A stretch of 62,964 bases of DNA, the filler included, from Sphacelaria rigidula (lineage: Eukaryota), in assembly GCA_964200075.2 (NCBI GenBank). It is 7 parts of 7 records of this genome, joined end to end, with 100 filler letters (N's around TTAATTAATTAA, not from the genome) between each part and the next. Parts side by side here need not be neighbours in the genome. Positions count along the whole stretch, not along the records: positions 9,011 to 17,920 come from CAXNAA020009777.1; 6 more parts are not named here. One strand, 5' to 3'. Numbering within the stretch: position 1 is the first letter of the stretch; each line of letters opens with the position of its first letter. Shown here in pieces: positions 8,911 to 60,400 of the stretch. The notes under the pieces were generated by a model. That model was not told where the DNA came from and searched no databases. It worked only from the letters and a program-made list of their open reading frames with translations. The translations under genes were made by a program, and so were the position numbers.

Positions 8911-9010
8911 NNNNNNNNNNNNNNNNNNNNNNNNNNNNNNNNNNNNNNNNNNNNTTAATTAATTAANNNNNNNNNNNNNNNNNNNNNNNNNNNNNNNNNN
9001 NNNNNNNNNN
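8911..9010. other. Artificial contig linker (44N-TTAATTAATTAA-44N)
   Basis: Read directly; the 12-mer gives stops in all six frames; identical to five other linkers. Confidence 0.98.
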
Positions 9011-9419
9011 CCATCATGGTTACCGCAACAAAAACGCAAGGGCGCAAAAAAAACGGTAACCTGGTTGTTGGCCGGTTTGGGGGAGGGCTATCTCGGCAGC
9101 AGTCGAAGGGCCCACCTTACCGGGACTAACGAAAGAAGCGAGCGACGAAACAGATTTCTGCCTTTTCTTGGAGAAAAACGGCCGTAACACATTATCGCAG
9201 AACAAAGAATAAAAGTTAGGGGCTTTCGGGAAAACATCGCAGATTTGTCGCAAGGCTCGCAGATATTTCCCGCAGGGGCGACTTTGGGTGTGTGAGACGT
9301 ACGAAATCTCGCTAACACATACATGTATGCAAAACATCAACTAGAAGCACCCAGGCGCCGAAGCAAAGATATATGGGCCGGCATGGTCGTGTCTGCGAGG
9401 TGTAGGGCCATACTGGGGT

Positions 9420-9605
9420 TTTAGAGCCCGAAAAAGAGAAAAGGCGCATAAAAACATTTGAGGCGCCGATTTCCTCTCTTCAAGGTCTGAAAAAGAAGAA
9501 AGGCACACAAAAAAGAAAAAAGGCGCAAAAAAAAACAAAAAGGCGCCGAAAACGAAAAAAATAGGCGAAAAGCATGAAAACAGTACCCGGAAAACACGAG
9601 GAAAA
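9420..9605. repeat. A-rich array of short AAGGCG(C) motifs, possibly subterminal repeats of a DNA transposon
   Basis: AAGGCGC/AGGCG recurs at about 9441, 9500, 9520, 9540 and 9563 between A-tracts. Confidence 0.4.
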
Positions 9606-10002
9606 GTAGCCAAGGATCCAAAGTCTACACCTCAGGCACACGTGAACCGTCGTTTGAATCATAGACCCGCGGGCGAGCCGTGTTAGAGGCCGAGCCTGAA
9701 TTTCTGGCGCTAACTAGTGTGCAGCCACAACAATCCCCCCCCCCCCCATGAGATCAGTCGTGATATCCCTGTCCGGGACAGGTGGAGGAAGGGGTTCTCA
9801 TCCTCATGCACAGCGGACACGCTCAACCCCGACACGTTTTTTCTACATACTTGAATCAGATGACCTATTCGTTATGTTGGCATTTTTCAAACACTAGGCC
9901 GTGCGACAATTTTTCATCTTTTATCAGATAGTTCAATGCTCTCGAAACGATTGCGGAGGCACGTGGCTACAGAAAATACCATCGGTCGATAGTGTGACTC
10001 AC

Positions 10003-10414
10003 CGTCCTCAAGGATTCGCATAGCCTCTGGGCTGAACTCATGGTACACTCGACACGGCACGCAGTGATCTTGCTCGAAAATCGATCTCGCCGCGGAGATC
10101 CGATGATTTCTGTCCAAGACGCGAAACTCACACGTGCAGAGAAACTCCGATGTTATTGCTCCATCCTCCGGGACACCTTCATGTGGCATCACTATGGCTG
10201 GCGGATTGTGCGTGAGCCACCCCTTTGATTTCAACGAAGTGATGACCTTCTTCACTCCAGGAGGGTTCAGCTCGCGGGTGAGGGACGTCACGGCGATTTG
10301 AGATAACTTCATCGGAAACGTACCTACGTAGTGGCTGGTGAGAAGGGTTTCCATGTTCCGCTGTACTGGCGCTACTGTCCCTGACGGCTGACTTCTGACA
10401 TCAGGGGACTCCAT
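10003..10414 (-). CDS. Exon encoding a ParB/Sulfiredoxin-like (ParB-N) domain
   Basis: Open frame TRELNPPGVKKVITSLKSKGWLTHNPPAIV...FRVLDRNHRISAARSIF...VPCRVY fits the ParB/Srx pattern (R..helix..S...G...P.IV...DGxHR..A...VP); ATG at 10414; consensus donor G|GTGAGT after 10003. Confidence 0.65.
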
Positions 10415-11249
10415 CAGGCTGAAACAACGGTTGCCTGCTCCTTGACTGTTATGGTATGCAGGCTGCGGGCGGCAGTGCGGTGGGTTGTGTAAGGGAGGGG
10501 GGGGGGGGGGGGGGGGGGGGGATAGAGCGAGGGACGGCGAGAACATTCTAATATCGCTGTTAGTTGCAGGTCACGATCGGGACACGTTACCCACCTTTAC
10601 CCACAACGCCACCTGTACTCAGAATTCGGCAACGTATCTGGATCATATCAGTCTCGCATGAGTACTAATAAGCCATGTTCTTCGATAATATCTTACTTAC
10701 TAGCTAGTACGACGGTGTCTTTCTTACGAGCTCCACTTCCGGTAGAATGATGACCCACTTGCCGCGTGTCAGGTGCCATACCACTGAAACAATCCCACCA
10801 GTCAGGCAGGTGAAAAGACCTAAAGATTCCGATATTTGTCGAGATGTGTCCCATTCTCTGATCACGCTTCGAGTGCACATGGTCAGATGTACACAGGACC
10901 ACAGGATATTTGTCCCGAAATTCTGACGGTCAGTGCATGTTGATATGTGATGTCGGAAAGATTGATCTAAACGTGGGACAACGCCAACATCGTCGATGCT
11001 GTCCAAACATGACCACCCCGCCCATGCTGTCATAAACGTATGGGCATCGCCTACTCTCAAGCACTAGTGTGGGGCGTGCGTTTATGCCTATTAGAGAGGC
11101 GGGCAGCCTCCTGTTCGCGACCTCGGTTGAACCCACAGAGCGGAGCAGCGAATCATGTGGGCGTACCGGCGGCTTGACTCCAAAAAGAAGGGAAGAGCAA
11201 TCCCCTCTCGAGTCGATCGTTCCGGTGGCGGGTGCAACTCTCTCCACAC

Positions 11250-11850
11250 AGCCTATTGCGCTGCAAGATATATATGCTTGCATCGAGTTTCGAGTGCTAC
11301 CGCAGTCTACGGTGTGTTGAACGGTCCGTTGAAGGGACGCTTGATGCTCAGAGGTTGGCGTCGGAGCAAGAGGACCTCAGTCGTATCGTCGCGGGCAAAG
11401 CAAGACTGGCCTGGGTTCGAGAGCACGTGCCGTATCAGAAACCGGGTGAAAACATGGTGTCGATGCATGCTTTTGACGGCGTGGTGTGTAGTCAATTCTT
11501 CACACGAGCGTATGGTGTGTCGAAGAACTTCGTTGAGAACGCGAAGAAGAACCCGGGTGCTCCATCGGTATCGAGAACCACGTGAGTATCTTAAATCTCG
11601 TCGCCAAATGAAACGCTCACCAAGTTTGGGCAGATGTATAGCTCCCACTGGCGTGTAGTAAAGCGAACATAATATGTGGATTTCACACAAAATATAGCAG
11701 CAGTACTGTACTAGGCAAGCTCGACGTCGAAATAGACCGAAGATATGTGCTACCATAGCCTGCTGTGACCGTGCTTTACTGTAGCGTCGGCCGACACATA
11801 CCGGATCACTGCTTCTTGCCGTCGTACCCAGCAAAAACACTCAACAGGTG
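11250..11850 (+). pseudogene. Degenerate N-terminal part of a Sola/DUF7869-like DNA transposase
   Basis: VCSQFFTRAYGVS motif in ORF 11232-11585; GTGAGT donor at 11582; downstream frameshifted RPK...VGRHIPDHCFLPSYPAK resembles the GDxMP...LP motif; no catalytic DDD region seen. Confidence 0.4.
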
Positions 11851-12089
11851 TGACTGAATTGGTCCGTAGTAGGCTTCGGACGGGTGTAAACTCGTGAGGG
11901 CGCATCCAGGAACAACCGGTACAATTTTGAATCTTGAAATCGATAACTGTATCCAGTTGTACTATTTCGCGGCTGAGATCCGCCTCGGAACAGTTTCACC
12001 GGCTGACAGACCAGGAATATTCACGGGTTTCCAGAGGGCAAGGGGGTTCGACGTACAGCCGGAGAGCTCAAGGACCATTTTTTTCGGAA

Positions 12090-14050
12090 GTACAGACTCT
12101 GCTCGCAGTCTTTCGGGTCTACCTGACCCTTCTTGCGTTGCCAGCATAGCTTCACACTGTCTTTAGTGTTGTTGTGAAACACGAAGTAGATACATCAACA
12201 GCGCGCATGTAACTACGAAAACTGAAAGGTGCTCGTCGAAGACATACTGTTACATACTGTACTGACTTTGCATGCACTTGATGATACGGACAACATATTG
12301 TTAGTACCTCTCCGGCTCGTCCGTACACTCGTTCGTTTTTACTACTGTCTCTACTGTCTCAATTGCTGTGGTTACCATGATCGCTGCTCAAGCACTGTGA
12401 TGGCCGATCTTCTCAAGACGGGGCATGAAGTGAAATTTCCTACTTCAACCAAACATGCGGGATATTCATCCATGTGCAATACAGTATGCAATGATTTGTA
12501 CGTACTCGCTCACCATTTATCGCAGGGCAACACAGTTTTCCAGCGCAAGGGATGATCAGTTTAACGAGGAACAGCTCATCCTGAATGTCAGGGTATCTTG
12601 ATCTCAGCTTCAGCCGATGGTATTTCTCTTTTGCACTGGTGGTTTTGAATCTCATGTCTTGGGCCACTTCGTTCCCTTCCATAGGAGTAAAACCAGGGGG
12701 CCGGCTTTCACCGATTCTGAAAGAACCGAGTTCAAGCCGGATGTAAAGAGGCATGTTTATGTAACCGTCTTCGTACGGGCTCTAACATCCTCCCCCCTGA
12801 CTGCGGCACATTGCCAGTTCCCGCAGTCAGCCCTCCGGGACTTTTCCATCAGATTAGATGGGCCCATCATTGTACTGCCCTTCCTCCATGTATGCCGCGA
12901 TCCATAACAGAAACGTGATGGTGGCGGTAAGCGTGTCTGCAGGTGGCTGCTGATCAATGTGTTCCAGACAGATATGAGGATGTGACATGCGGCGCTGTAG
13001 TATGCTTCTCATTTTGCAACAGTAGGGTGAGCTGTCAGAGGTTTTGAGCTGAACCAACCGTTTGACTGAAACTGCTGGGTACGTTTTTCCCATCTCGGCG
13101 GGACAGAGTTCCTCGAGGGGATAGTTGGTGCATTCCGTTCTGCGGTTGTTTGTGACAAAATATCTGGGCCAACACGTAAAATTAGACGGAGTTGTACGAC
13201 AATGTATGATGATGATAAAAAGAATGCACACAAGAACCTCACGTGTGTTGTGAAACATGAAGGACTTTCAGGCTGATTACGGTAGGTGGATGGCCTTAGC
13301 CGGCATTGAGACATTTTTACAGGGATATACCGATCTTGACATTAGTGAATTGCACGTTCTATCATCCCTGGAAGTCTTGGTTGAATTCCCACTAACTTGG
13401 TTGGTCGATGGGTAGGTATCTTGATCGCAAAAGAAGTATTGCACAATCCGCCCTTCCTTGGAGTGTAGTTGAATTTCTCAAACTTTGCAGGTCGACGATG
13501 AAATGCTTGTTGTCATATCGGATGAATGACTCGATGGCATGATGATCTTGGTATGTGACCGGCGTTGAGGCCCTTTTCAACAGGGATGTGCCGCTCTCAA
13601 CGTCAGGTGTTACACTATACGCTTTCACCTTCGAGTACAGGCAGATGTTCTCTAACTTGCTGGGTAGAAGGGTAGGTATCTTGATTGCATAGAAAGTATT
13701 GCACGATTCCCCCTCCCTAGGGGTGTAGGGTTAATGTCCCAGGCTTGATACGGTTGATGACGAAGTGTATTTTCGGTACTTGGTTATCTGCGGATAAACC
13801 AATATATACATCTTTTTGGCGCTGGGGTCATGTTTACATGAAGAGCCGACCCAGTCCCATGTATTCCATTTTTTCGCCACCTGTGGGGTGTGGGTGCAGG
13901 GCACCGTTCCCAGCCAGCATGGTTGTTGAAGAAATTATGAAGATCATCTCAATAGGTGCAGTAAGGGTAGGACGCTATACCACTGACTTGGTTGTACAGA
14001 CGATATCGGCATTTACTCATTTCAGTGGCGTGCAGAAGTACACATGTGAG
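12090..14050 (-). pseudogene. Decayed minus-strand coding-like region(s) of unknown family
   Basis: Chain of ORF fragments (12440-12754, 12854-13258, 13392-13628); part is homologous to 330-720; contains an internal direct duplication. Confidence 0.3.
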
Positions 14051-15300
14051 TTATGACGACCAGTTGAATCCTAAGACATATGCTCCGTAGAGTCAATCTT
14101 GGTTTGATGATACTGCTTGGCCCTTCATTTTCACAAAGTATAGAGGGCACTTCTCGTCGTGAATTAACTTCGACTGCCCCTTGATCTCGATTCCCATAAG
14201 GAGGTGGAAACACGAGAGGTGTCAAAGTGCGTTTGGTCACGACTTGTGGCATTGACGGTTAAATTAACTGGGGGGGGGGGCTGTTTGAAAAAGGAACAGT
14301 AATAATCGGTGCCCTGTGGGGTACAGACTGAGTACAAATCACGTATTCCGTATGTGGTAGGTACGAACAAAAGACATGTTACGCAGGACATGAACATCAA
14401 GAAATGCCTACCTTGAACCCGTTTTGGATGTAGTTGTGAGGCTGTGAGCTGGCAGAACTAGTACCATGAGGTGAAAGAACAGGTGTTATGGCATGACACT
14501 ATAAAAGAAGAAATGCTCATTTTTCACCCCACGTGATTGGTGGTCAAGATTGATATCCTGATGGCACTGGGACCATGTACGGTGGGAAAACATGCTGGCA
14601 CGGCATGCCACAACAAGAGTGCAGAGCGCAAATTGTTCTTGGTTGACCGGAGTTGTCGCCTGGTGAACTGACCAAAACGTGCGCGGGCATGTCGACACAG
14701 CATGGAAAAACAAGTGTGTAACCGGAAGCAAGGATGCGTAAGATACAGATGACTGTTGAGATGTGACTCTTTGTGGATTTTTTGTTTTTGTGTGATTATA
14801 ACGGTCGGTGGAGTGAGATATCATCATATTGATGAGATCTGGTGACTGATACGATTCTGGATATTTCCCTAAATTGTCACTGTGTCGCGGCGAGCCTCAA
14901 TTCCCGGTGAGGCTCGATATTTGAAATAATCGTTTCCTGCGATAGGTGGGAAGCTAATATTGGGTGGACGCGAGCCGGCAACGAGCACAACCCCCCAGCT
15001 GCATGGATCTCTCGGTGGACATCGGTGGAGAGAGGAGAACAACGCTCCACGATGCAGATGCCCCCCAGTGCCGTAGCCCGAAACGAGGGAGGCAAGAGAG
15101 AGACGCAGACCGTTTGAAAGCAAAACATGAGGGGGGGCGGCAGGATGTGATGTCATGTTGTGCTTTTGATAGCGCGTGTTGACAACAGTTGAGCAAACAT
15201 TTTGCTCTGCCGGTTCGCTTTCGCTAAGTAGAGTTCTGGTTGATTGACAGTATGTGCCGATAATTATTTCTCCGCCGCATCGTGACGTGACGAAGATTTG

Positions 15301-15470
15301 AAAATAGGACATGTGCACCTGATGATGCGCACGCTGTACTCCGAAAGATGAGCGTGAGGGTTTCTCTGTTTTTCTGTTTGGAAGATTGATATCTCGGAGT
15401 ATGAAAAATAGGGCATGTGCACTTGATGATGCGCACGCTGTAGTGCAAGATGAGCGTGAGAGTCTTGATT
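15301..15470. repeat. Tandem duplication, unit about 104 bp
   Basis: AAAATAGG(A/G)CATGTGCAC(C/T)TGATGATGCGCACGCTGTA at 15301 and about 15405. Confidence 0.8.
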
Positions 15471-16349
15471 TTGTACTATGCTGCAGAGTTGGATGCATGT
15501 CTGAACCGATACTCGGTGTGCACTGGATTGCTTGAACCATGGAAAAGCGCAAAACGTGAGAGTTTGTTCGCAAATTTCCAAATATGGATATCATCATGAT
15601 TTTGGTTCCGAGAGAGCTTGGTGTTGGATTTTGGACGGTGATCGGGATCTTCGAGCGCAAGAATTTGAATGAGGTACAGAGAATTTTGAAGTACTGTAAC
15701 TTTTCTAAAGAAGGTGCGTACATACGATTCTGGTATGTATTGTCTATGGGGGGGGTAGGTGCGATTTTTCTCCGACAGTACCTGTTCAGTGACGTGAGTG
15801 GTCTTGGGAGACATCCCCGCTCACAGGATGAATCGTTGTGTAGATTGGTTGCCCGTGAGCCTACCACTGAAACGACTTCCCAAGGGGGGTGTTGAGGTGA
15901 AGAGCCTTTTCAGTGTAGTCTACAGTACTGATCAGCCACGGTACAGAGGTATCCGTCTTCACGGGTTGTGACAGTTAAATGCGGTGGGATTTGATACCAT
16001 AGTAGGCGTATGTCTTGTACCTACGTACGCAATGTTTGCTTGTCACGGTGTTGGGGTAGCCACACCCAGTCACTTCGCTCTCTCCCTTCTTTTCCTTCCT
16101 TGACTGGCTTAGTCAAGTTATGTAATACTACTCCTCTACAACAGCATGCTCGGCTCAGCCGTGTCCTTTGATCGACTTGATCAGTCGTGTCTAGCTGTTC
16201 CTGTTTACGGATCACGTATCAAAGAACAACGTGTGTTGGCGGTTTTCCTTGCTTGGGGGCCAAAAGGTGGGTCAAACGTCCCAAAAGTGAAGAATCCGTG
16301 GGCCAACATCTGTTTGTCGTAACATCCGGCCTAAGCGGTTTTTTGCAAC

Positions 16350-18579: not shown

Positions 18580-19980
18580 GGTATGACCGGATATGAACAT
18601 GGGTCCAGCACAACCGGTCCCCAGCTGGTGTGTAAGGCGATTCGGACAGGGCAAGTTTTCTGCTTTACGCGCTCAACACTGCCGTTAGCCAGTTTCACCA
18701 GGTGTTCACCAACCATCGGTGTGACCACTGGAACATCGGAACTATAGCTTGTAATTTTGCCGCTACACCCACCGACATGGTCGTAATTCCAGACCCCGAG
18801 TCTCAAATGGTCTTGACCGGACAAACAGTCTGTGCCCCTGCACTCAGTACAAACAAGTCGGCGAGACACCATATTTCGTCTTTTTCTACGCGTATACCCT
18901 CAGATTGGAAACCTGATACCCCACCCGCTTTAACCGATCTCCACGACGACATCGTCTCAGATATCCAGCGCGGGACTGTTTCCCATGTTTCCCCCGATAT
19001 GGTCTGCTGTACGCCACGAGTAGAAATGACCGGTTGTGGTGGTAGCATCACTCCACTGCTGGGGTGGGCCCTGCGACAGCTGCTGCGGTTGTTGCCGCGT
19101 GTCGCCGGCTTTCGACTGCCACCTGCAGTATGTTGTGGAGCAACAGCTTGGCTTTGCTGCTTACAATTCTTCACGAAGTGGCCCTTGTTTCCACATGAGA
19201 AACAAACTGCGACGCTTCGGCTCGGTTTCCGAGATTTCCCGGAACTGGCAGTCTCACTGCCACTGGTCGCCATTTTCTCACCATTCGGTTCGCGCTTGGC
19301 CAAGGAGGTCCCGCTGCTGCCTTTCTGTTTCAGCTGCGGCTGGTGATGGCGCTGTTTATTAGCCGCTTCTACCGTTTTCCATGCCTCTGCTGCTTTCCGA
19401 GCCGGATCATACACGAGCCCAGGGTCCTCTTTCCACCCCGCCTTCATGTGTAGCGTGTTGAGCACTATTGTTTTGAATTCAGGGGGAGCATGCCGGCGAG
19501 CAATGTCCGCCTAATTATTTGAGCGGGCTCTGCTTTGAACGTCTCGTCCTCGCGAAACGCGCGCTCGATGCTCGCGTTTCCGGCGAAAAACTCCTCGAGG
19601 GTACCCCACTGTCCCCCGGTTTTACCCATAGCAGTCGGCTCATTGCGAGCGGCCAACGCCTTCGGCACACTCGCTGCAGCTACGGAAGGATCGATCTCTG
19701 TATCAATTCAGATGTTTATCATCGAGTACCGATCCGTCGCGTACTGTAGGTGTCAAACACGCGTGAATGTGCTTCGGCACGAGTTCTGTCACGGTCAATG
19801 AAGCGGCCTGTACTGCACGCCCATCGCTGTTCAGTTGTGCAGTCTCTTCGTAATCCGTAAAGTTTTGAAAAAGTCGTCTGGAGGCATCTTCACTGAAGTG
19901 CCGTCCGTACTCCGGTGCTTCTAACGATCCACCTGTCGTAAGCCTAGTAGATTGAAACGTTACCTCATCGCCTGCATCGC
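18580..19980 (-). mobile_element. Ty3/gypsy gag-protease remnant
   Basis: CCHC knuckle CFSCGNKGHFVKNC (ORF 18803-19465); ALHTSWGPVVLDP segment; homologous to 20400-21922; stops and frameshifts. Confidence 0.8.
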
Positions 19981-20389: not shown

Positions 20390-21922
20390 TGGCAGCGGGA
20401 AGGGAAGGTGGCACCAGCGAGACGGTTGATGAGGTGAAGTTTGCAGTAACCGAATTGACTCTCGATGAATCATTGAAAGTGCCCAAATTTGGGCGAGTTT
20501 TAAGTGAACAAGCCTCCAGACGTTTTTACCAAAAGTTTCGAGAATATGAGAGGGATTGTAAAAAAGTAACAAAGGCCGGTCGGTCAAGTGCGCACTCTTG
20601 ATCATGCAAGAGTTGGTGCCCAAGCACATCCAGAACTGCGTGTCTGACGCCACCTTTGACGGGCTGCTACTCGACGAAGACGAACTGCAGCAAGGGACTG
20701 CACGTCATGCCAAATGCGGGATCGACATGGAAATTGATCCTTCCGAAGCTGCAGCAGGTGTGAAAAAGGCCCTTACCGCACGGTCTGAACCAACTGCAAT
20801 GGATCGAGTAGAAGGGCAATGAAGTTCATTACAGGAGTACTTTGCGAAAAATGCGGATGCGAAGTGCGTTTTCCTTGAATCTGATCGTACGTTCAAGGCT
20901 GGTCCAGCACATATTATTACCAGAGCGATGGTCGCCGGCCTGACCCCACCTAAGTTTAAGAATAAAGTTCAAAATATACTGTACATGAAAAGGCACTGGA
21001 AAGAGAGCCCGAAAGTGGTTTATGATGTAGCTCATGACTTGGCGTAAAAATAGAAGACTGTTGAGGAGGTTGACGAACACCGCCGCCAGCAACCGCAACT
21101 TAGGCAAAAGGGAAGGGGCTCACAAGGCTCGAAAAAACTGACATCGAATGCCGGCGCAGCGGCTGCGGCCGCCGGAGCGGGTAGTGGCGGTAAGAGCTCA
21201 AGAAAGCCCCACAAACCTGGTCCATGGTTGTTTTGAGTGTGGCGATAAGAGTCGATACAAGAAGGACTGTAAGAAACAGAGCACACCTGCGGCCACGGTG
21301 AGTGAGTGCGCCGGGTGGGCAACCAAAGTCGTCGTCGTCGTCGCCGTCGCAGCAGCAGCAGCAGCAGCAGCAGACAACAACAACAGGGCCATGGTCAGCG
21401 GGGGGCAGTAAAGGTCCTGCTCCCACACGGGCTGTTTTCTCAGGGGATGGAATGCAAGGGGTTGCTAGCAGTGCGGAGAGCGTGGTGCCGCCCCAGCCTT
21501 CCGCTCCAGCTCCTGTAGCTCAATCTCCCACTACCGGCGGGACCGACTCAGGAGTGGACGTCTCGAACAACGCCAGTATAGCGGGGTCTTCACAAAGCTG
21601 AGGTTGCAGATTTATAGGATGAGCGGGTGGTAGTTGATCGCAAGCAGCGATGCTGCCGGGCAGGCTTGTCCGTCCCAGGTTCCACAGCCAATGACGTTTG
21701 CCCTGTTACTGTCGTTTTGGATTCGGGGGCTGGCATCACGATCATGTCTGGAAAAGTGGCGGCCTAGTTGCAAGCAGTATTTCCTGATGTGCCAGTCCGT
21801 CGTCACGAGTATGGCTCGCGCCCGGTGAAACTAAAAGCTTGTAATGTACGGAGTATGCAGTCAAAGACGTGCCTAGTGCGCACCGTTCTGCACACCAGCT
21901 TGGGGCCGGTGGTGTTGGATCC
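20390..21922 (+). mobile_element. Ty3/gypsy gag-protease remnant, related to the 18580-19980 copy
   Basis: ALTARSEPTAMD vs ALAARNEPTAMG; degenerate knuckle CFECGDKSRYKKDC; LHTSLGPVVLDP; (GTC)n(GCA)n microsatellite at about 21328-21385. Confidence 0.8.
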
Positions 21923-22330
21923 GAGAAGCATGTGTCTACCCGAGGGGACAGGCACGACAGTGCACCCACCGAACGTGCAGTAGGTGGTCCACGTCTGAAA
22001 CAACGATATTGGGCAGCTGCTTGCACTGTGAAAGCCGAGAAGCGTGTGTCTCCCCGAGGGGACAGGAACCACAGTGCACCCGCCGAACGTGCAGTAGGTG
22101 GTCCACGTTTAAAACGACGATACTGGGCAGCTGCTTGCACTGTGAAAGCCGAGAAGCATGTGTCTCCCCAACGGGAGCGGCAAGACAGTGCACCCGCCGA
22201 ACGTGCAGTAGGTGGTGTGGGTTTGAAACAACGATACGGGGCAGCTGCTTGCACTGTGAAAGCCGAGAAGCATGTGTCTGCACGAGGGGGCAGGCACGAC
22301 AGTGCACCTGCCGAGCGTGCAGTAGTAGAA
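21923..22330 (+). repeat. Tandem array, 114-bp unit, about 3.5 copies
   Basis: GAGAAGC(A/G)TGTGTCT starts at 21923, 22037, 22151 and 22265. Confidence 0.92.
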
Positions 22331-25143
22331 ATAGCTCGCCCGCGACTAAAGCAACAACACGGTGCCACTTTGAGGGGCGGGAGGGTGACGACGCATGTGT
22401 CTGTCCGAAGAGACGCACTGGGCAGCAAGAACAGTGAGTGTGCAGTAGTCGGTGCTGAATAAGCACCCGCTGGCAGTGCTGTTGGAAGAGGCCAACAAGT
22501 CACATAGCCATCGCTAGTCCGCGAAGGCAGGCACGAGAACGGTGACGCGGTGCCGCTATTGCCGTCAAAGAGCAAGCCGGACAGGAGGTGGCGGCTGTAG
22601 CGAGTATGGGTGACACTGCTGCTGCTGTTAGCGATGTTGAGAGGGCGAAGCCTACATGGGCCAGTAAGCAAGTACTGATGGGCGGAGGTTCCAGTTGCTT
22701 GTTGCCGCCGGACCAGCGCGTAGCTGGAGATACTCCTTGCATGCTCGAAGCTGCAGGGGGGTGTTATTCGCGTATTGGGAGCGAGCAGGGTAAGCAAGGA
22801 GCTCGCCGCGCTCATGGTGAATCTATCTGCGCCAGTTACACGGCGGGAGATCTGTCAGATGATTCGCAGGGGTGTCTGCTTGAAGGACAGGTGGATGCCG
22901 GGTTGGCGGAATTGCCACCGGAGCAGCGCGTAGCTGTGGACACGCTTTGCATGATCGAAACAACAAGGGCGTGTGACCCGCGTGAAGCGAAATGGCAGAG
23001 CGAGCTGCAAGCTCGTGATGCTGTTAGTGATCACAATTCTGACAGCGACGACGAGCGTCGCGTGGTGTTGGGGTGGTCGTGTGCACTGCTGTTTACATCG
23101 ACAGCTTCGGCGTGTTTGGCGGCGATGTCGGAGGTGTCTCAACGGTTGCGCCGCGGGGTGTTCGAGGAGGATAGTGTGCCATCAGGAGGTGTTACTGTTC
23201 GGGACTGTGTAGCTGGTCCCGTTTCGCCTCTCATTTCCTCTGTAAAACTGACTGGAGCACAGGTGTTAAGTTCTGCCCAAGTATCTGCGGAGGCAAATGG
23301 CTAGTTGCATTGGTTCGGCGGTGCGGATATACCGTTTAGTGACGAGCGGAGCCGGTCCACGAGGGTGGGAGCTGTAGCTGGACGCATGGCGCGAGGAGCG
23401 AGTGTTCGAGTGGAAACGCTGCTCTACGCTGTGCACGGGGTTGTGGTTCGAGTGCTGCTCTTGCTTAGGAGTGGTTGGAGGACTACAGATAAGGCACTAC
23501 CTGAGGTGTTTGCTGTTGTGGTGAGCGCCGAGTTGGGTGCTGATGTTGAGGAGCAAGCGCTGAGGTGATCGAGTGCTTGTTGAGAATGAAGAAACACATT
23601 ATGGCTGGTATTCGTAAATCGTTTTGAGAATAGTTGCAGCTTGTTATTGTGTGGTTTGTGGTCATCTTTGCGCATGAAACATGATTGTTGAGCGAGCATG
23701 ATCGTATCGCGTGTGCAGGGTGAAACTCTGACGTACACGTGGATACTTGGCATGTGTGTGTTGTGCTGATATGGTTGGCACGGACGATGCATGGTGTTTG
23801 CTGCGAGGAAGGTGGCATTGCATGTGCTGGGTGAAATATTGGCTTGCATGTGCGAATTTTCATATGCTGAGTGGAATTTTGGCAGACATGTGCGAATTTT
23901 TGCTCAAATGGTACTAGTATGAATGGTACCTGGTGACGACCTAGGGTGGGGCAGTTTTTAATATACTGCTGTATGCTAAATGAAGAGAAGCTCGTATGAT
24001 CTTCTTCGCGCAGGAACACGGTCGAATAATATTTGTGCGGTTTTCTCGTACTGACTGCAGGATATGTGGATTGCTGCTGTTAGCGTGAAAATGAGCTGAA
24101 AGATACGAAATACGTAGGCTTATCGTATGTAAGCAGGTATGAGGCGAGTGGTTCCGGTGGTTGAAGATAAAGACATTATGCGCGCATGCATCAATAATCT
24201 TTGACCGTGGCACGTTTTTGTATGGTTTGTCACGTGTTTGAACGAGCACGTGGTTGGAGTATGTAGATGATGCGTCCATCTGTTCGAAGCACTGGTGCAG
24301 GTGGACTGCCAGAGTGTCGAGGAATTCAGTATTTTTACGTTTTGGCTGATGCACGGATGGGATATGACGGTCCAAGATCCAAACGAGATATAGAAATATC
24401 TGGGATTTGCTCGAAAACAAGCGTTCGAAAACGAGATCACGGGGGGTGATCAATGATGGTGGAGGTCAAGGTCCGTTCACCGTCTTTGGATTAGTATGCA
24501 TGACTTGAATAGCGGTTTGAGTCATGGCTTTCCTTCGATTGTCTTAATAAAATGATGGCCAGTCGAAGAAGCATTGTAAGCTTTGACGGCGGGAAGGCAT
24601 GCGATGCATACGTTTTTGTCGGTGTTGGAGAAGCAAGAGGCCAGGTGCGTTTTAGAAATATTGGGCGCTTGTCTCCTTCTAGCGTGAGGATGATGTATCA
24701 TTTGGCTGTTGCTCTCCGTTGCGCAGGTGTTGAACGTAGAAAGAGTGCATCTTGTATGTTGAGAAAAACCTTGGCTCGGATGAGAGGGACGATGAGTCAC
24801 GAATGCTCTGGAATTTGACGTTCGCTGATGTTTCTGGTCTCGTGCCAATGAAGAGTCAAGAGACTCGTTTTGGGCGAAGATCTGAGAATTCGGCGATAGC
24901 TATAGCTTTGTCACTCGAAGTGGTGCAAGTAGCGTGATTGCATGTTCATGATGGACGATATTTTGTTGGGATCTCTTGCGAGTGGTTCGCAAGTGGGGCA
25001 AGCTTTCACGGAGCTGTCGTCGAAAGCAGCGGAAGAGATTGCTACTCTTTGCGGAAAACGACCGTACTGTCAGGCACCAATGATGTCTGAGTTTGTCAAG
25101 CTCTGATGTAACTACTTGTTGGTAGTAGGGAGCTGTGGGGTGC

Positions 25144-26930: not shown

Positions 26931-27030
26931 NNNNNNNNNNNNNNNNNNNNNNNNNNNNNNNNNNNNNNNNNNNNTTAATTAATTAANNNNNNNNNNNNNN
27001 NNNNNNNNNNNNNNNNNNNNNNNNNNNNNN
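26931..27030. other. Artificial contig linker
   Basis: Same 100-bp structure. Confidence 0.98.
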
Positions 27031-28769: not shown

Positions 28770-30321
28770 AAGCTCGAGGTCCCCGACGGGTACACGCAGG
28801 CGGTGCGCTCGGAGTAGGGTGATTTATTGAGGGACTCGATGGGGCGTGAATGGCGGGGAATTCTGGAGGCGGAGACAATTGACTCAGCGGAAAAGCAACT
28901 CGTGGACAACTATATCCACGCAAAGTGGGTATATGACTGGTAGGCGGACGAGTTTGGATGGCCCACGAAGATGAAGTCGAGACTAGTAGCAAGCGGAGAT
29001 AGGCAGAGAGAACATAGATTTTGGAGAACTGTATGCTCCCACCGTAGCAGTTTCTAGCGTACGTTTGTTGACGACTCTAGCTTGTGAGCAAAATCTTAAG
29101 CTGCGTTATTTTGATATTGAACAGGCTTTTGTATAGTCTGAGTTGGACGAGGACGTTTTCATGCGGTTGCCACTTGGTTGTGGAAGCTTATCGGGTAAAA
29201 TAGTAAGACTCAACAAACGTTTGTACGGATTGAAACAGGCAAGTAGGCAATGGCATAATCACTTGGCGGAGTGTTTATTTGTTTTGGGACTTGATCAGTG
29301 CTTGGCGGGTTCATGTGTGTTTCGGTTGATTGAGGATGGCAGGGTGATTATCACCATAGTAGTACGTGTAGATGATATATTCGCAGTGGGGGAGAAGGAC
29401 AGGTGTGACGAGTTTGATAGAAATCTCAACACGACGGTTCCAGTCAAGAACCTCGGGGATTTGCGTTGGTATTCTGGACTGTACTATGAGAGAGATATTG
29501 CAAGGTGCACTCTGAAGATTTCACAACAAACATACGCAGAGGAGTTGGCGAAGGAATACGGAGTAGAGTGGGGAAAGAGTAAGAGTACCCCCATCGCTGG
29601 TGGTGCGAAGCTTGAAGAGTTCAGTGTAGAAGAGCAGGCAACGGAATTTCCGTTTCGGGAGTTTATAGGGTCACTGACGTGGCTGGCAACCCAAACGAGG
29701 CCAGATATATCTAGCGCAGTACGTGCAGTAGCGAGGTACTGTGCCTCACCAAAACACCTTCATTGGCGTGCTGCGCTTGGTATTTTGAGGTATGTTAGGC
29801 GAACAAGTTCGCGGGGGATTTATTTTCGCAGAGGAAGTATACGGGGGTTGAGCTTTCATTTGTTTGCAGATGCTGACTGCGCAAGTAAGGCAGCTGATAG
29901 GCGGTCGGTATCAGGAGGGCTAGTGATGTGTTGAGGTGGATGTGTGTCTTGGTTTTCAAGGACTCAGAAGAGTGTGACGCTGTCCACAACGGAACCAGAG
30001 TACGTTGCCATGAGAGATATTCTGAAGGAGGTATTGTTTTTGAGACAGGTTTGGCGTTTCGTGTTGCCGCAGATGGGAATGCCATGCATCCCTGTGTTTG
30101 AGGATAATCGGGGAGCTATTCAATTGGCAACGAACCCACTCACGAACTCCAACTCCAAGCACATCGACGTACGGCATCAATCTATCAGAGAGTTGGTTGG
30201 GAGGAATGAGGTTTCGGTTCTTCACGTGAGATCGGAGTATCAACGTGCAGATTTCCTCACTCAAGTGTTGCCGACAGAGTCTTCTGGGGTTCATCGTACT
30301 ATTGTCATGAACGTTATGTAA
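28770..30321 (+). mobile_element. Ty1/copia pol remnant (RT + RNase H)
   Basis: KWVY...KSRLVA...FDIEQAF, LYGLKQASRQW, VRVDDIF, TRPDIS, FADAD...RSVSG, EPEYVA, FEDNRGAI, SKHIDVR; a few in-frame stops. Confidence 0.95.
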
Positions 30322-35939: not shown

Positions 35940-36039
35940 NNNNNNNNNNNNNNNNNNNNNNNNNNNNNNNNNNNNNNNNNNNNTTAATTAATTAANNNNN
36001 NNNNNNNNNNNNNNNNNNNNNNNNNNNNNNNNNNNNNNN
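35940..36039. other. Artificial contig linker
   Basis: Same 100-bp structure. Confidence 0.98.
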
Positions 36040-44948: not shown

Positions 44949-45048
44949 NNNNNNNNNNNNNNNNNNNNNNNNNNNNNNNNNNNNNNNNNNNNTTAATTAA
45001 TTAANNNNNNNNNNNNNNNNNNNNNNNNNNNNNNNNNNNNNNNNNNNN
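44949..45048. other. Artificial contig linker
   Basis: Same 100-bp structure. Confidence 0.98.
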
Positions 45049-53956: not shown

Positions 53957-54056
53957 NNNNNNNNNNNNNNNNNNNNNNNNNNNNNNNNNNNNNNNNNNNN
54001 TTAATTAATTAANNNNNNNNNNNNNNNNNNNNNNNNNNNNNNNNNNNNNNNNNNNN
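53957..54056. other. Artificial contig linker
   Basis: Same 100-bp structure. Confidence 0.98.
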
Positions 54057-55571: not shown

Positions 55572-56339
55572 TCGGGAATCGACCCCTCATTCTCTTCACT
55601 CTAATGGCGACAGTCGGACCATTACACCAACGGGGCGCAATCAATGTAGTCCCGGAGAAACCCTGACCGGTCTTGACCCTGCAGTAGGTGTGCTGTATGT
55701 CTTCGCTTTAAGGGCGTATCTTACGAACTGGGCCAGCCTTGAAGCTGATTTGTAGTTTGCAGGCCCATTCTCCCATCATTTTTTTAGAATTGGACCCCGA
55801 AAGTTGGTATGGATAATGCACAGGGCATAATTAAAAAATACCTTCGTCGAGCGAATAATTTTTTTTTCATGATATAAGGGCATTGTACTGAGACCTAGAA
55901 AGTTATGATGCTCTCTTCACGGTCCATACCAAATTTCAGGGGCCACGTAAAAAGTCTGATGAGGAAATCGGCCGTCTAGTAACCGGCTCGTTAGAAATTC
56001 GGAACAGTGTCTTTGCACGCCAGTTACCGGCCCACGTCTGATGTTTGTGTATTTCAATTTTGTGTGGGACCTCGCTAGGGCATAATGAGCCAAAAAAGGG
56101 GGTCAGGTTGTTGTTTTTTTCCGCTGGTTTAGGGCGTTTTAACATGCTCACTATGATAATTTGTCACGAGAACGCCTCAACCTCTAGGAAAAAGAAATGA
56201 AGTTCCATTTTTATGTTCAGCATGTCTTTGTGATTCTCCATACTAAGTTTCTAACCTTGATTGAAAAAATTGCGCTAGAAACCTGAGGTGAGGTGCGGCA
56301 GCAACGTTTATTTTCCCTTGAAACTCCGCCAAGGCTACT

Positions 56340-56795
56340 TGTTATGTATTCAAAAAAAATCTTACTGAAAAGTGCATTTTTGACCCTTCTCAATCGTATT
56401 TCTTCGCCCAAATTGAGGGCCAGGCTGATGTTGACACCTTGGAATGACTTGCTGCGCTCGTTGAGACGGTTCCAGAGTACCTTCGCGTTTTCCGTAGGTC
56501 GCAGTTTTGTTTTTGACCAAATTTGCATTCTCAACAACAAATGGCCAACTTATTCAAAAACAGGGTGAAAACTGCCATTTTTCTGATAACTTTTTTGTAC
56601 TTGAAAGTGTAAGTTTGGTCAAAAGTAAAACGGCGACTTACGAGAAACGCAAAGGTGCTCTGGAACGGTCTCAACGAGCACAGCAATCATTCCAAGGTGT
56701 CAGCATCCGCCTGGCCCTCTTGTCGGGCGAAAAACGATTGAGAAGGGTCAAAAATGCACTTTTCAACAAGATTTTTTTTTTCATACATGAGAACT
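56340..56795. mobile_element. Foldback MITE nested in the family B element
   Basis: GAAAAGTGCATTTTTGACCCTTCTCAATCG vs CGATTGAGAAGGGTCAAAAATGCACTTTTC; arms about 180 bp. Confidence 0.85.
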
Positions 56796-57249
56796 AGCCT
56801 AGAGAGACGACGAAAATGAAGAAAAGGACAAAAGCTGTGTGTACGTTTTTTTTGTGTTATGCACTAGCGATTCTCCACACAAAATTTCGAAGCAAAACTC
56901 TCAAAAACTGAGACGCGATATCCAGATTTAGTCCACTTAGTTAGTGCCCATGCTCGTAATATATATTGATATTAGTGCTGAATTTTTGTGCGCCATATCT
57001 CGACATAGATAACAAATTAGGTGAAGGTAAGGGTATCCATCATTTCTCCGTGCTCCAGAGAATGTCCACACCAAAAATCGTCGTCATCCGCCGTATACAT
57101 CGTTCGTGGTTTCACATGGACTTCAGTGTGCACGCTATCTCCGTACGGTATAGGAATTAGTACGAGACATGGGGCTTCGTCAGTCCGAAAAATTTGGCCC
57201 AGATTTTTCAAGCAGGTAGGCACCTTCCCCTTGATCGGGCAAATAGGGC

Positions 57250-57431
57250 GCGTCTTAGCACGTTAGTTTTTGATCGAAATTGTGGGGTAGAAAACAAGAA
57301 TCCCGATATGACAGGTCGTAATTTCAACCATCGTCGTTAATTTTGAAGACGTTTGAAATCACGGCCCATCACATCAGGATTTTTGTTTCCCAGCGCACTT
57401 TTTCGATAGATAACTGATGTGCTAAGACACG
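57250..57431. repeat. Imperfect hairpin or MITE, arms about 85 bp
   Basis: CGTCTTAGCACGTTAGTT...AACTGATGTGCTAAGAC. Confidence 0.65.
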
Positions 57432-60400
57432 ATCTTTTGGACTGAAAAAAGTCACTGACAAAAGCTCGGGCGGACGACTTTTCTCAGTGACTTTTTTCAG
57501 AGGAATCAGTTTTCAAAACCCCACCTTATACTGTAGTATGAAAAAATCCTGGGGATCTGTACATCATCTAGCCTGCGTGCAGACGGTGGTGGTGGTCATC
57601 ATTTGCGTTTTGTGCTTGTGCCACTTGCGGTAAACTAATATGTAAATAATCCCATCCAGGTACAGGATAGGTGGGAGGGCAACACACACACCGTAGCTAC
57701 AAGTGCAATAGGGATCGAAATGACAGGCGTATTGAACTTCAGCCGACCGCCGCTTGGTGCAGTAGTATTGTCGCAAGCGGTGCAGTGTACAGCAGACGGT
57801 TTGTGCCTTACCGTACACAACAAACTCACGTAATAGTCAGTAGTGCGGTAGCAACCGTCTCAGTACATGAAACACTACAGAGTTCGCAGTCGGTGGCGGG
57901 CAGGACGACGAGCATGAAACGATACGAGCAGTCAACGCAGCCAGCAGGGGCGACGTCGTGCTCTTTTATAGTAGTAACGCTACCGGCAAAAAAGCACAGT
58001 ACTGTGCTGTCTGTCCCTGGTTCCACGGTCATGAAGAGGATACACGGAGTACTGCAGCAGCTATGCTGTTGCCACGGTACTGTACATATAACATTCACAG
58101 CTATTTTTGCACTGACTGTTTTACACTTCTGTGCGAGGAGTGTGGGATGGAGTACTGACTGTACCATTGCGAGTGCGGTGTGCAAGGAGCGTGTGACCGT
58201 CAATTCCCAAATAGAGAAAAGTCTCTGGGAACTATATGCTTTTCCCAAAGAGATTTGGAACAATCGCGCTGGTTAGAAACGGCCGTCAGTTTCCAGATAC
58301 TCTTTTTCATTAAAAATGTTCTTGTGAGGTCACGTTCTGAAAAAGAGTATCTGGAAACTGACCAAAATGACCTTTCACGGTGATTTTTTTCAGTCTAGAA
58401 GGAGACGATTAATACGATATGCTGATCACAGCCCAACTCGTGTGTGTCGATGAAACATTGCTTTGAGAGCTTTAACCCGTTTCTAGTCTGGGCCAGCCTG
58501 TAGCACTTTTCCCCCCGATTTTTATTCGATCGAGAAGCTGGGGTGGTGAAATTCATTTGAGCGAAAATCGCTAATTTTTTGTAGAGTTGGGTCCAAGCGA
58601 ATTTTCAAGCTTTCAATCGAAAAAGGACTGAAATTCGTGAAACGGTACACGGTCACTCGTGTACAGTACAGTCTGCACTGTCGGCACTGCTTGCAAGCAG
58701 CGTGTCTTGAGTACATGTGTGCGTGTTTCGTACAGTAGGATTTTAAAGACGAGCGGGCAACGTGCACTGCAGACAGCCCACGACTATTGAATCTCTCTGC
58801 TTACAATGCGACGTGAAAAGGAATTCAACGTACAGCTTTGTACGGTCTGCACTGTCCATGAGCGTGTACGCAACTCGGTTGCCCACCGTACCACGCAGTC
58901 CCGTCGCTGATCTTACCATCAAAGAATATGTGCAAGTTTTCGCCACCAAAAAGCAAACGAAGCATACCCAGCTACTGCAGTGTATCTATCCCTGTGCTGA
59001 ACTCGTGCTCTACGCTGTATGCAGGGTTGCGGTGGTAGCTGAGGATGAGTTGAATGGAGTTTGCATGGTTCTGTGAACGGGTGTTATCTGGCGTGGTGGC
59101 CTGTAAGATAGGAATCAAGTGCCGCTTCGCGCCTTTCGACCGTATGTTTTCGAATGCATTCATGAGCTTAGCTTTATTGTTCTGTAGCTTTTCTACGCGC
59201 GCCACTCATTATAAATATGAGTCGAAGCCTTCTAGGAACATAAATGCGGTGGACCTATTAGATTGAGAGAAGAATATCGACTGCACTCTTGTAATAAAAA
59301 AAAAGTGATGATACACGCCCTAATACATACAACAGCAAGACACAGTCAGGGTGCCATTAGTCTCCGCTGAATACAGTCTCCTCCATGCCGCCGATGTCTC
59401 TGCTAAGTATTCCGCAACAACAGTACACAGATTGTGTGAAACTATGCTGGCAACGCATGAAGGGTCAGGTAGGCAGCGTTAACCACGAGCAGAGGGTTAA
59501 ACACGTCATTTGTACCCATGTAACCTATGGTTGATTTTGGCATGACCAAAATAAGATGGACAGTGAAGTGGTCCATCTGAAGGGGAACAAAGTGAATATT
59601 TTGAAAACCGTGGTGGGTCACTGTGCTCCTCTCGAGCCTCGCTCCTCGCTCAGCAGTATTCATGGGAAACTTCCAATACACGTAGTCGACTGGGTGAGCT
59701 TTTCGGCTCATTTGCGAACCGGCCCCCACCCTCCTGCCCCCTGGGAACCCCCAGATGTCCCTAGACTGCCAGCCGATGAAACTGTTCTGAGGCGACGCTC
59801 GTTATCTAGGGGTTAACATAACATGATCCACTTGAACCTCAATATTTCAGTTTTTTTTTTCAGCTGACCCTCGCTTGGTGGCCATGCTAATCCCCTTGTG
59901 TCATCTGTCTTGTCTGTTCTTTCCCTGTTCTTTCGGTCTGCATATTCTAGCAGTCCGATTTTTTTTTCTTCTTTATCCCGTTGAACTCAGGGAAGCTACT
60001 CGTACTTCCCACATGTTTTCTTGGCGTCTCTCTTCCTTTTTTCATTTTGGTGATATTTTTAGTATATTGCGTTCGTTCTTATAATTGGACTGGAGTCTGA
60101 GAAAATAATGACGAGGACTCCATGTCTTGAAAGGAATAGCAGGGACGGTGTTGGAGAGACGAGCGTACTTCTGCGACCACGGGTTCGAGAGATCGGACTA
60201 ATGTGCGGAAATAATTAGAAGAATTGTTCTATAATAACATATTCAGGTAATGTCAGCCTGAGATTTCCCCCCCCCGCTCGGACTTCCTAGATCGAGGGAG
60301 TCGTCGTCGAAGGGGCGTGTGATGGCGATAACGGTGCTGTGTTGAACATTACAGCTTTGACTCATGTGACGGCATTCGCGGCGTCATTTGGGTACGCAAA

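Follow-up and report, generated by a model that had tools for sequence, protein, structure and literature searches.

In the window analysed here, a stretch of 62,964 bases from Sphacelaria rigidula, the minus-strand exon that ends at a GTGAGT splice donor is best read, with a probability of about two in three, as the first exon of a gene copy that is truncated and probably inactive and that belongs to a multicopy family of brown algae. The window copy is probably a dead fragment because only this first exon is found and because, alone among 66 aligned sequences, it has Arg in place of Gly in a conserved motif; from these two features we infer loss of function. A counterpoint is that all 137 codons of the frame are free of stops, a state that might not last in a copy long dead.

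The exon, its homologues and the shared intron

The exon frame opens with an ATG at 10414 on the minus strand and ends at 10003, after 137 codons plus one base (Table 1), reading TRELNPPGVKKVITSLKSKGW...PPAIV...FRVLDRNHRISAA...VPCRVY. An earlier note on this DNA had described an exon of about 137 codons with a consensus GTGAGT donor and had quoted this peptide; both the positions and the reading prove exact once the minus strand is taken, and the same peptide is read from 10414 to 10003. The stop-to-stop frame around the exon (9914-10570, minus strand) spans 218 aa, and as the window holds 42 stop-to-stop ORFs of at least 150 aa, the length of the ORF alone is within chance. The ORF is taken as real because of homology, with an E-value of about 4e-75 to 1.1e-74 against P0003 and matches to 96 representative proteins at E<=1e-3. 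P0003 is a 301-aa 'unnamed protein product' of S. rigidula, of which residues 1-137 are 88-89% identical to the window exon; with tblastn, its residues 1-138 align to 10414-10001 (88.4% identity). Homologues start at a Met that matches 10414.

Table 1. Features of the exon and its surroundings, in positions of the window
Feature	Position	Strand	Remark
First coding exon, predicted ParB/Srx-fold N-terminal domain	10003..10414	-	137 codons + 1 base
GTGAGT splice donor, phase 1	9997..10002	-	From sequence; position common to family
Codons for DRNHR (gac-aga-aat-cat-cgg)	10100..10114	-	Arg codon AGA at 10111-10109
Upstream flank, in frame, non-homologous	10415..10570	-	Poly-G 10493-10521 reads as poly-Pro
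Presumed intron remnant past donor	9011..9996	-	No recognisable later exon
A-rich 20-nt tandem repeat, GGCGC core, 4 copies	9490-9571		More copies at 9029, 9431
Poly-C run	9733-9747		In presumed intron remnant

Word-based searching brought up P0003 and also P0002 (172 aa, 50% identity, E 2e-33), the latter as one match among 15 candidates. With phmmer, 1.84 billion representatives yielded the 96 proteins with E<=1e-3, including 34 with E<=1e-10 and one with E<=1e-30, most of them ORFs of 100-250 aa on short contigs. Two of these, P0031 and P0074, were dropped as relatives, being tandem-repeat ORFs that match query residues 106-132 only, many times. Six of the 31 clusters examined are named, and all six are from brown algae (two from S. 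rigidula, one each from Cladosiphon okamuranus and Pylaiella littoralis, and two from Ectocarpus sp. CCAP 1310/34). One 90% protein cluster has 45 members, and the 15 that are listed sit on long contigs; an Ectocarpus cluster contains four near-identical proteins. The family is multicopy, with many paralogues per genome. Its longest member is P0040 of Cladosiphon (843 aa), and a search for longer members with the 66-sequence alignment A1 found none among the lengths scanned (1477-4215 aa only). A different arrangement is seen in P0087 of Ectocarpus sp. CCAP 1310/34 (431 aa), where the ParB-like domain is C-terminal (residues 330-429) and some 320 residues unrelated to it, without a Pfam match, come first. 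This arrangement may reflect fusion to a repeat gene next to it, or an error in joining the gene model.

Alignment A1 combines the exon of the window with P0002 and with 64 representatives out of the 96; the remaining 32, namely the two artefacts P0031 and P0074 and the short or weaker matches, were excluded. The intron was looked for in the residues past the A1 column of Asp137, where 63 of the 65 homologues extend by three residues or more. Most of these (56/63) continue with G, S, C or R followed by E or K, which is what read-through of NGT plus GAG or AAG gives, that is, of a GT(G/A)AG donor in phase 1. Five of the seven exceptions are spliced gene models with xNDxxE in common (P0003, P0020, P0040, P0052 and P0064), and P0003 is spliced at the donor point of the window, between GD and A. 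The intron position is therefore common to members that are only 25-50% identical, and the gene has long been resident in eukaryotes. The description of a spliced eukaryotic gene in the earlier note is thus borne out, both by the nearest annotated relative, which splices at this point, and by the read-through signature in the 56 homologues.

Predicted fold and the DGNHR motif

Predicted structures give good support for placing the family in the ParB/Srx fold superfamily. The AlphaFold2 model of the exon domain, built with A1, has a pLDDT of 86.7 and a pTM of 0.76. In a Foldseek comparison with the PDB there are 21 matches at E<=1e-3, and among the matches listed all are ParB/Srx-fold structures, the top one being Bacillus subtilis ParB-CDP (6sdk_A, E 3.9e-5, TMq 0.51). 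Further matches are PadC, human and Arabidopsis sulfiredoxin, Caulobacter and Myxococcus ParB, Noc, KorB, SbnI and a serine kinase. Model and matches together recover the three-dimensional fold of the ParB N-terminal domain and sulfiredoxin, as the earlier note had claimed when it suggested AlphaFold and Foldseek as a check. Against BFVD, where predictions are compared on both sides, there are 90 matches at E<=1e-3 with about 10-20% identity; among the 50 listed, most of the named ones are phage ParB/Srx proteins and a few are from giant viruses. The ESM Atlas model of P0003 (residues ~20-300) resembles clusters of ParB_N(+HTH/MTase) type (TM 0.52-0.61).

The superfamily assignment relies mainly on predicted structure because no Pfam, PDB-sequence or NCBIfam match is significant. 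The ParBc profile PF02195, which had also been put forward as a check, fails to match: the window ORF has no match to it at E<=10, no Pfam model matches P0002 or P0003, and PF02195 is not found in the 66 members at E<=0.1, the gathering score not being reached, while the same search does find it in plasmid ParB. No Pfam match of the 66 members is significant, the best being GmrSD_N in 3/66 (E 0.015). Besides GmrSD_N, no prokaryotic families come up repeatedly in the weak sequence matches except the DGQHR families (TIGR03187 in seven of the 66 members, DGQHR_dnd_1 in four and DpdB in one); SerK is matched by one member. All matches to the DGQHR models are below the curated cut-offs (best E 0.0088-0.044), and the window exon itself has no match to these models. 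P0002 matches phrog_1033, a 'ParB-like partition protein', with E 9e-4. In a weak hhalign alignment of A1 with plasmid ParB (E 0.021), SIxxxGWL falls on Box I and VLDGNHR..A on ..AGGRRLAA, in register. Two kinds of match were discarded: the Pfam and PDB-sequence matches of the window ORF are poly-Pro noise or chance, and phycocyanin beta, the sole result of the A1 profile among PDB sequences (E 0.04), where it picked up no ParB, is a chance match through a DGNKR-like stretch.

In A1 the motif is DGNHR in 51 of 66 sequences, DGAHR in seven and DGNHG in two, and DRNHR, DGNHE, DGYHR, DGNHP, DGSHR and DGNRR occur once each. Asp101 is invariant, and Gly102, His104 and Arg105 are each conserved in at least 90%. 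Of the 95 proteins that remain of P0002-P0098 once the two artefacts are removed, 67 have exact DGNHR and seven are fragments that lack the motif. In the AlphaFold2 model the motif sits between a strand (97-99) and a helix (103-112), the site of the phosphate-binding loop in the ParB/Srx fold. A G-x-x-R type motif for phosphate binding is found at this turn in the family; the window's own copy, with DRNHR, does not have it intact.

Position 2 of the motif is Gly in 65/66 sequences, the window alone having Arg, and its Arg codon AGA is one transition from GGA. The earlier note had read DRNHR as a single-base change from an expected DGNHR and had asked whether other copies keep the latter, as 51 of the 66 aligned sequences do. 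As the sole sequence among 66 without Gly at position 2, the window copy is filed as a degenerate relic rather than a working member. Its nearest relative, P0003, reads DGNHE and lacks the conserved Arg. The window copy and P0003 are 88% identical and have different lesions in the motif, a pattern that fits relaxed constraint. Sulfiredoxin has its catalytic Cys within a GGCHR motif; the corresponding position is Asn in the window and in 51/66 members, and DGCHR occurs in one of the 95 representatives. The absence of this Cys, already remarked on from the sequence, means that the family is not sulfiredoxin.

Repeated DNA and the state of the window copy

Contigs of four public runs were matched to positions 9011-13000 (3990 bases; Table 2). 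All 30 bins of this interval are covered in X1, X2 and X4, and 19/30 in X6. Summed contig depth in X1, which is not a copy number, is about 16,000-58,000 over the exon bins, where single perfect-match contigs have about 75-94, and among the exon differences listed, nearly all of the depth differs from the window in its letter. With thousands of distinct contigs on 4 kb, the locus is repeated DNA. One contig from another copy spans the donor and adjoining intron, and contigs of other copies also cover the flank past the donor (9011..9996). Copies thus have intron DNA in common, which points to duplication at the DNA level and not to retrocopies.

Table 2. Contigs matched to positions 9011-13000, by run and likeness to the window
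Run	Contigs	>=99% alike	95-99%	90-95%
X1	2976	247	1029	1700
X2	2645	183	898	1564
X4	729	51	256	422
X6	119	11	27	81

No transposase, terminal inverted repeats or target-site duplication were found near the exon, and Pfam searches of the flanking ORFs gave no transposase domain. It is therefore the repetitiveness of the DNA, together with published precedent (see below), that suggests carriage of the exon's gene by a transposon. The transposon-like context proposed in the earlier note stands in so far as the DNA is repeated and multicopy and such cargo has been described in algae; the hallmarks of an element, namely transposase, terminal repeats and target-site duplication, were not found around the exon.

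Two smaller features lie within the same interval. Summed contig depth is highest in bin 9011-9143 (about 230,000 in X1), and many contigs begin matching at 9068 in X2 and X4; this marks the boundary of another repeat, which is highly abundant. The poly-C at 9733-9747 forms a perfect 15-nt inverted pair with poly-G at 10509-10523, flanking the exon plus about 270 nt of intron. The poly-C is also present in other copies of the repeat, and contig cover falls at the poly-G. The pair may belong to the structure of the repeat, or may be a chance product of low complexity.

Later exons and fused domains, for which the earlier note had proposed a search, were not recovered within the window. With tblastn, P0003 residues 139-301 have no match in it (best other E 0.15), and 114 family proteins give no credible later exon outside 9900-10600 in the 62,964 bases: of 153 matches, the 44 outside this interval are short and weak (E 0.006-1). 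The 10 kb downstream of the exon contain only two N runs, 44 bases each, at 8911-9010. What is absent from the window can be seen in full-length relatives, in which the N domain leads into a helical part of about 250 aa, and the longest form goes on from there with an acidic linker and another C-terminal region. The AlphaFold2 prediction for P0040 is confident only over residues ~30-140 (helical part pLDDT <60, C-terminal part <50). By eye, the C-terminus of P0040 looks to us like a beta-class N6/N4 methyltransferase with degenerate motifs. Language-model features from the Atlas liken its residues 540-843 to N6_N4_Mtase clusters (0.90-0.92), which is a lead only, and no member tested has a Pfam match to a methyltransferase or a 2OG oxygenase.

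The foremost alternative to a truncated copy is an intact, expressed gene in which DRNHR is tolerated and the later exons either lie more than 10 kb off, past the left end of the window, or are too diverged to be recognised. The open frame and consensus donor agree with such a gene, and in giant algal transposons genes are often stretched by nested insertions, according to PMC12477816. Insertion of elements into the intron could thus have moved the downstream exons to that distance, past the left end of the window. A single 193-nt contig lies on 10245-10437, but its run is only guessed to be RNA, and alone it is no evidence of expression and has no bearing on transcription or splicing. Against an intact gene are the lack of any homologous exon in the window with the 114 family proteins, the Gly of the motif in 65/66 members, and the lack of a joint at 10003 in the four runs, as seen in contigs and not in raw reads. 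An intact gene is accordingly considered unlikely, at something like one chance to every three or four given to the truncated copy.

Origin, comparison with known systems and possible role

Less likely still, and by a wide step, is that the exon is left over from an integrated giant virus (a phaeovirus or another nucleocytoviricot) or stems from a recent phage or bacterial transfer. Most proteins with the ParB/Srx fold are prokaryotic or viral, and phaeovirus insertions are known in brown-alga genomes. The BFVD matches include proteins of CroV, Orpheovirus and Bodo saltans virus, but these are as distant as the phage ones, structural likeness to phage, bacterial and giant-virus proteins being equally remote, and no phaeovirus protein is among the 50 matches listed. 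Searches for closer relatives are negative. The nine-sequence alignment A2 gave 20 pattern matches in IMG/VR viral contigs and 599 in JGI metagenome contigs, none of which was confirmed as a relative; tblastn of phage genomes with P0003 and P0040 found no match, and tblastn of plasmids with P0002 found three at chance level (E 0.8-10). The horizontal or viral acquisition proposed in the earlier note therefore finds no near relative in any of these collections. A recent transfer is further argued against by the intron, which is family-wide, in phase 1 and at one position across the divergent members. An ancient prokaryotic or viral source is plausible when the superfamily is considered in its entirety.

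An ordinary single-copy host gene, such as a sulfiredoxin orthologue, is very improbable: eukaryotic sulfiredoxins have the same fold, and the human and Arabidopsis proteins are among the Foldseek matches, but Asn replaces the catalytic Cys in family and window alike, the locus lies under thousands of divergent contigs with many paralogues per genome, and the named members are brown-algal only.

The closest parallels are accessory genes of algal transposons. A gene for a 1104-aa protein with ParB-like and DNA methyltransferase parts is carried by the 21.5-kb Sola1-1_Ec32 of Ectocarpus, according to PMC12477816, where the table row for Sola-1 reads 1, 1989, 2. In the Bostrychia Plavaka element, PAG3 combines a ParB N-terminal domain with a 2OG oxygenase and adjoins inverted-repeat arrays, according to bioRxiv 10.1101/2025.02.11.637652, and fusions of ParB-HTH with Dam are described from chlorophytes and chytrids in PMC4738411 (Iyer et al.). 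Like the present family, the algal transposon genes are eukaryotic, intron-bearing and repeat-borne and have an N-terminal ParB-type domain. The Ectocarpus proteins found here belong to the present family, and they are likened to the Sola1-1 gene by description only. Unlike the algal ParB-fusion genes, the window copy consists of the N-domain exon only and has no transposase nearby. The idea of a ParB-like gene with introns on mobile DNA is thus not new, having been published for algae. The window exon most likely represents a dead piece of such an accessory gene, borne by a transposon and of this known kind. The 20-nt GGCGC repeat (Table 1), just 3' of the donor, is reminiscent, by analogy, of the arrays beside ParB-like genes in the Bostrychia transposons. 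The main text of the Phaeoexplorer preprint does not mention 'ParB', no literature pairing DUF3723 with ParB was found, and PMC3493329 was set aside as a ParB source, since it matched only through the abbreviation 'Parbu'.

Bacterial and plasmid ParB proteins (Spo0J, Noc, KorB and PadC) match the family in fold (TMq 0.50-0.53, E 4e-5 to 6e-3); the Box I-like and Box II-like motifs are in register, and in both a helical region follows the N domain. However, the family has no PF02195 or HTH_ParB match, identity is about 15%, and its members are eukaryotic and spliced, with DGNHR where ParB has GERRxR. Of the canonical features of partition ParB, HTH_ParB is not matched in any member tested, and parS and ParA were not found; we know of no ParA partner or parS for the family. 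DndB/DpdB (TIGR03187/TIGR04172/NF041060) and GmrSD_N (DUF262), which make up the branch of the ParB/Srx superfamily associated with DNA modification, have a motif of D-G-x-H-R type in common with the family, which differs from DndB/DpdB in being eukaryotic and in lacking dnd or dpd partners. Eukaryotic sulfiredoxin has the fold and the H-R of the motif in common with the family, and differs in the catalytic residue and in lacking the family's extra N- and C-terminal elements and multicopy state.

ParB is an NTP-gated DNA clamp, and ParB-type domains are textbook modules of DNA segregation and DNA modification in prokaryotes. In intact members, the N-terminal domain has the predicted ParB/sulfiredoxin fold, with a Box I-like SIxxxGW...P.V and a Box II-like VLDGNHR, and would bind nucleotides. 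By analogy with ParB, DndB/DpdB and the ParB fusions of algal transposons, the intact protein may in addition bind the DNA of its carrier repeat, and, the analogy being carried further, might once bound gate or recruit an activity that modifies DNA or chromatin. Tentatively, the brown-algal DGNHR proteins could be a distinct clade of ParB/Srx NTPases, nearest to the DGQHR branch, that was spread by giant DNA transposons and acts as nucleotide-gated clamps on transposon DNA, directing its epigenetic marking or protection; we regard this as possible but less than even. If it is true, the window copy is one of many decayed witnesses of such a system. That ParB-type domains recur as cargo of giant transposons in algae suggests that mobile elements of eukaryotes rely on these domains for recognising and marking their own DNA. 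The family as a whole, with its DGNHR motif, old intron, lack of a Pfam model and echo of DGQHR, is more interesting than the locus, a decayed fragment that is one added data point and alone tests nothing new. As the family has no Pfam profile, a dedicated model would improve the annotation of brown-algal genomes.

Some other features of the window were recorded. Retroelement debris is present as a fragment of a Copia-type reverse transcriptase (RVT_2, 29137-29934, plus strand, E 2e-18) and as an ORF with a zinc knuckle (zf-CCHC, 18803-19510, minus strand, E 9e-5). Two long ORFs, 14869-15909 and 21742-22854, were rejected as genes, as they look non-coding; the latter is a repetitive ORF that results from a tandem duplication at 21921-22325 (period about 114 nt, 88% identity). 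Positions 433-1971 and 55996-59532 are linked by four collinear inverted matches (74-83% identity) and probably represent one repeat family, present twice and in opposite directions; given their divergence, they are unlikely to be the terminal repeats of one giant element. Runs of N recur at a spacing of about 9,010 bases, as pairs of 44-base runs (8911-8954/8967-9010, 17921-17964/17977-18020, 26931-27030, 35940-36039, 44949-45048 and 53957-54056), and this even spacing looks like masking or scaffolding rather than biology.
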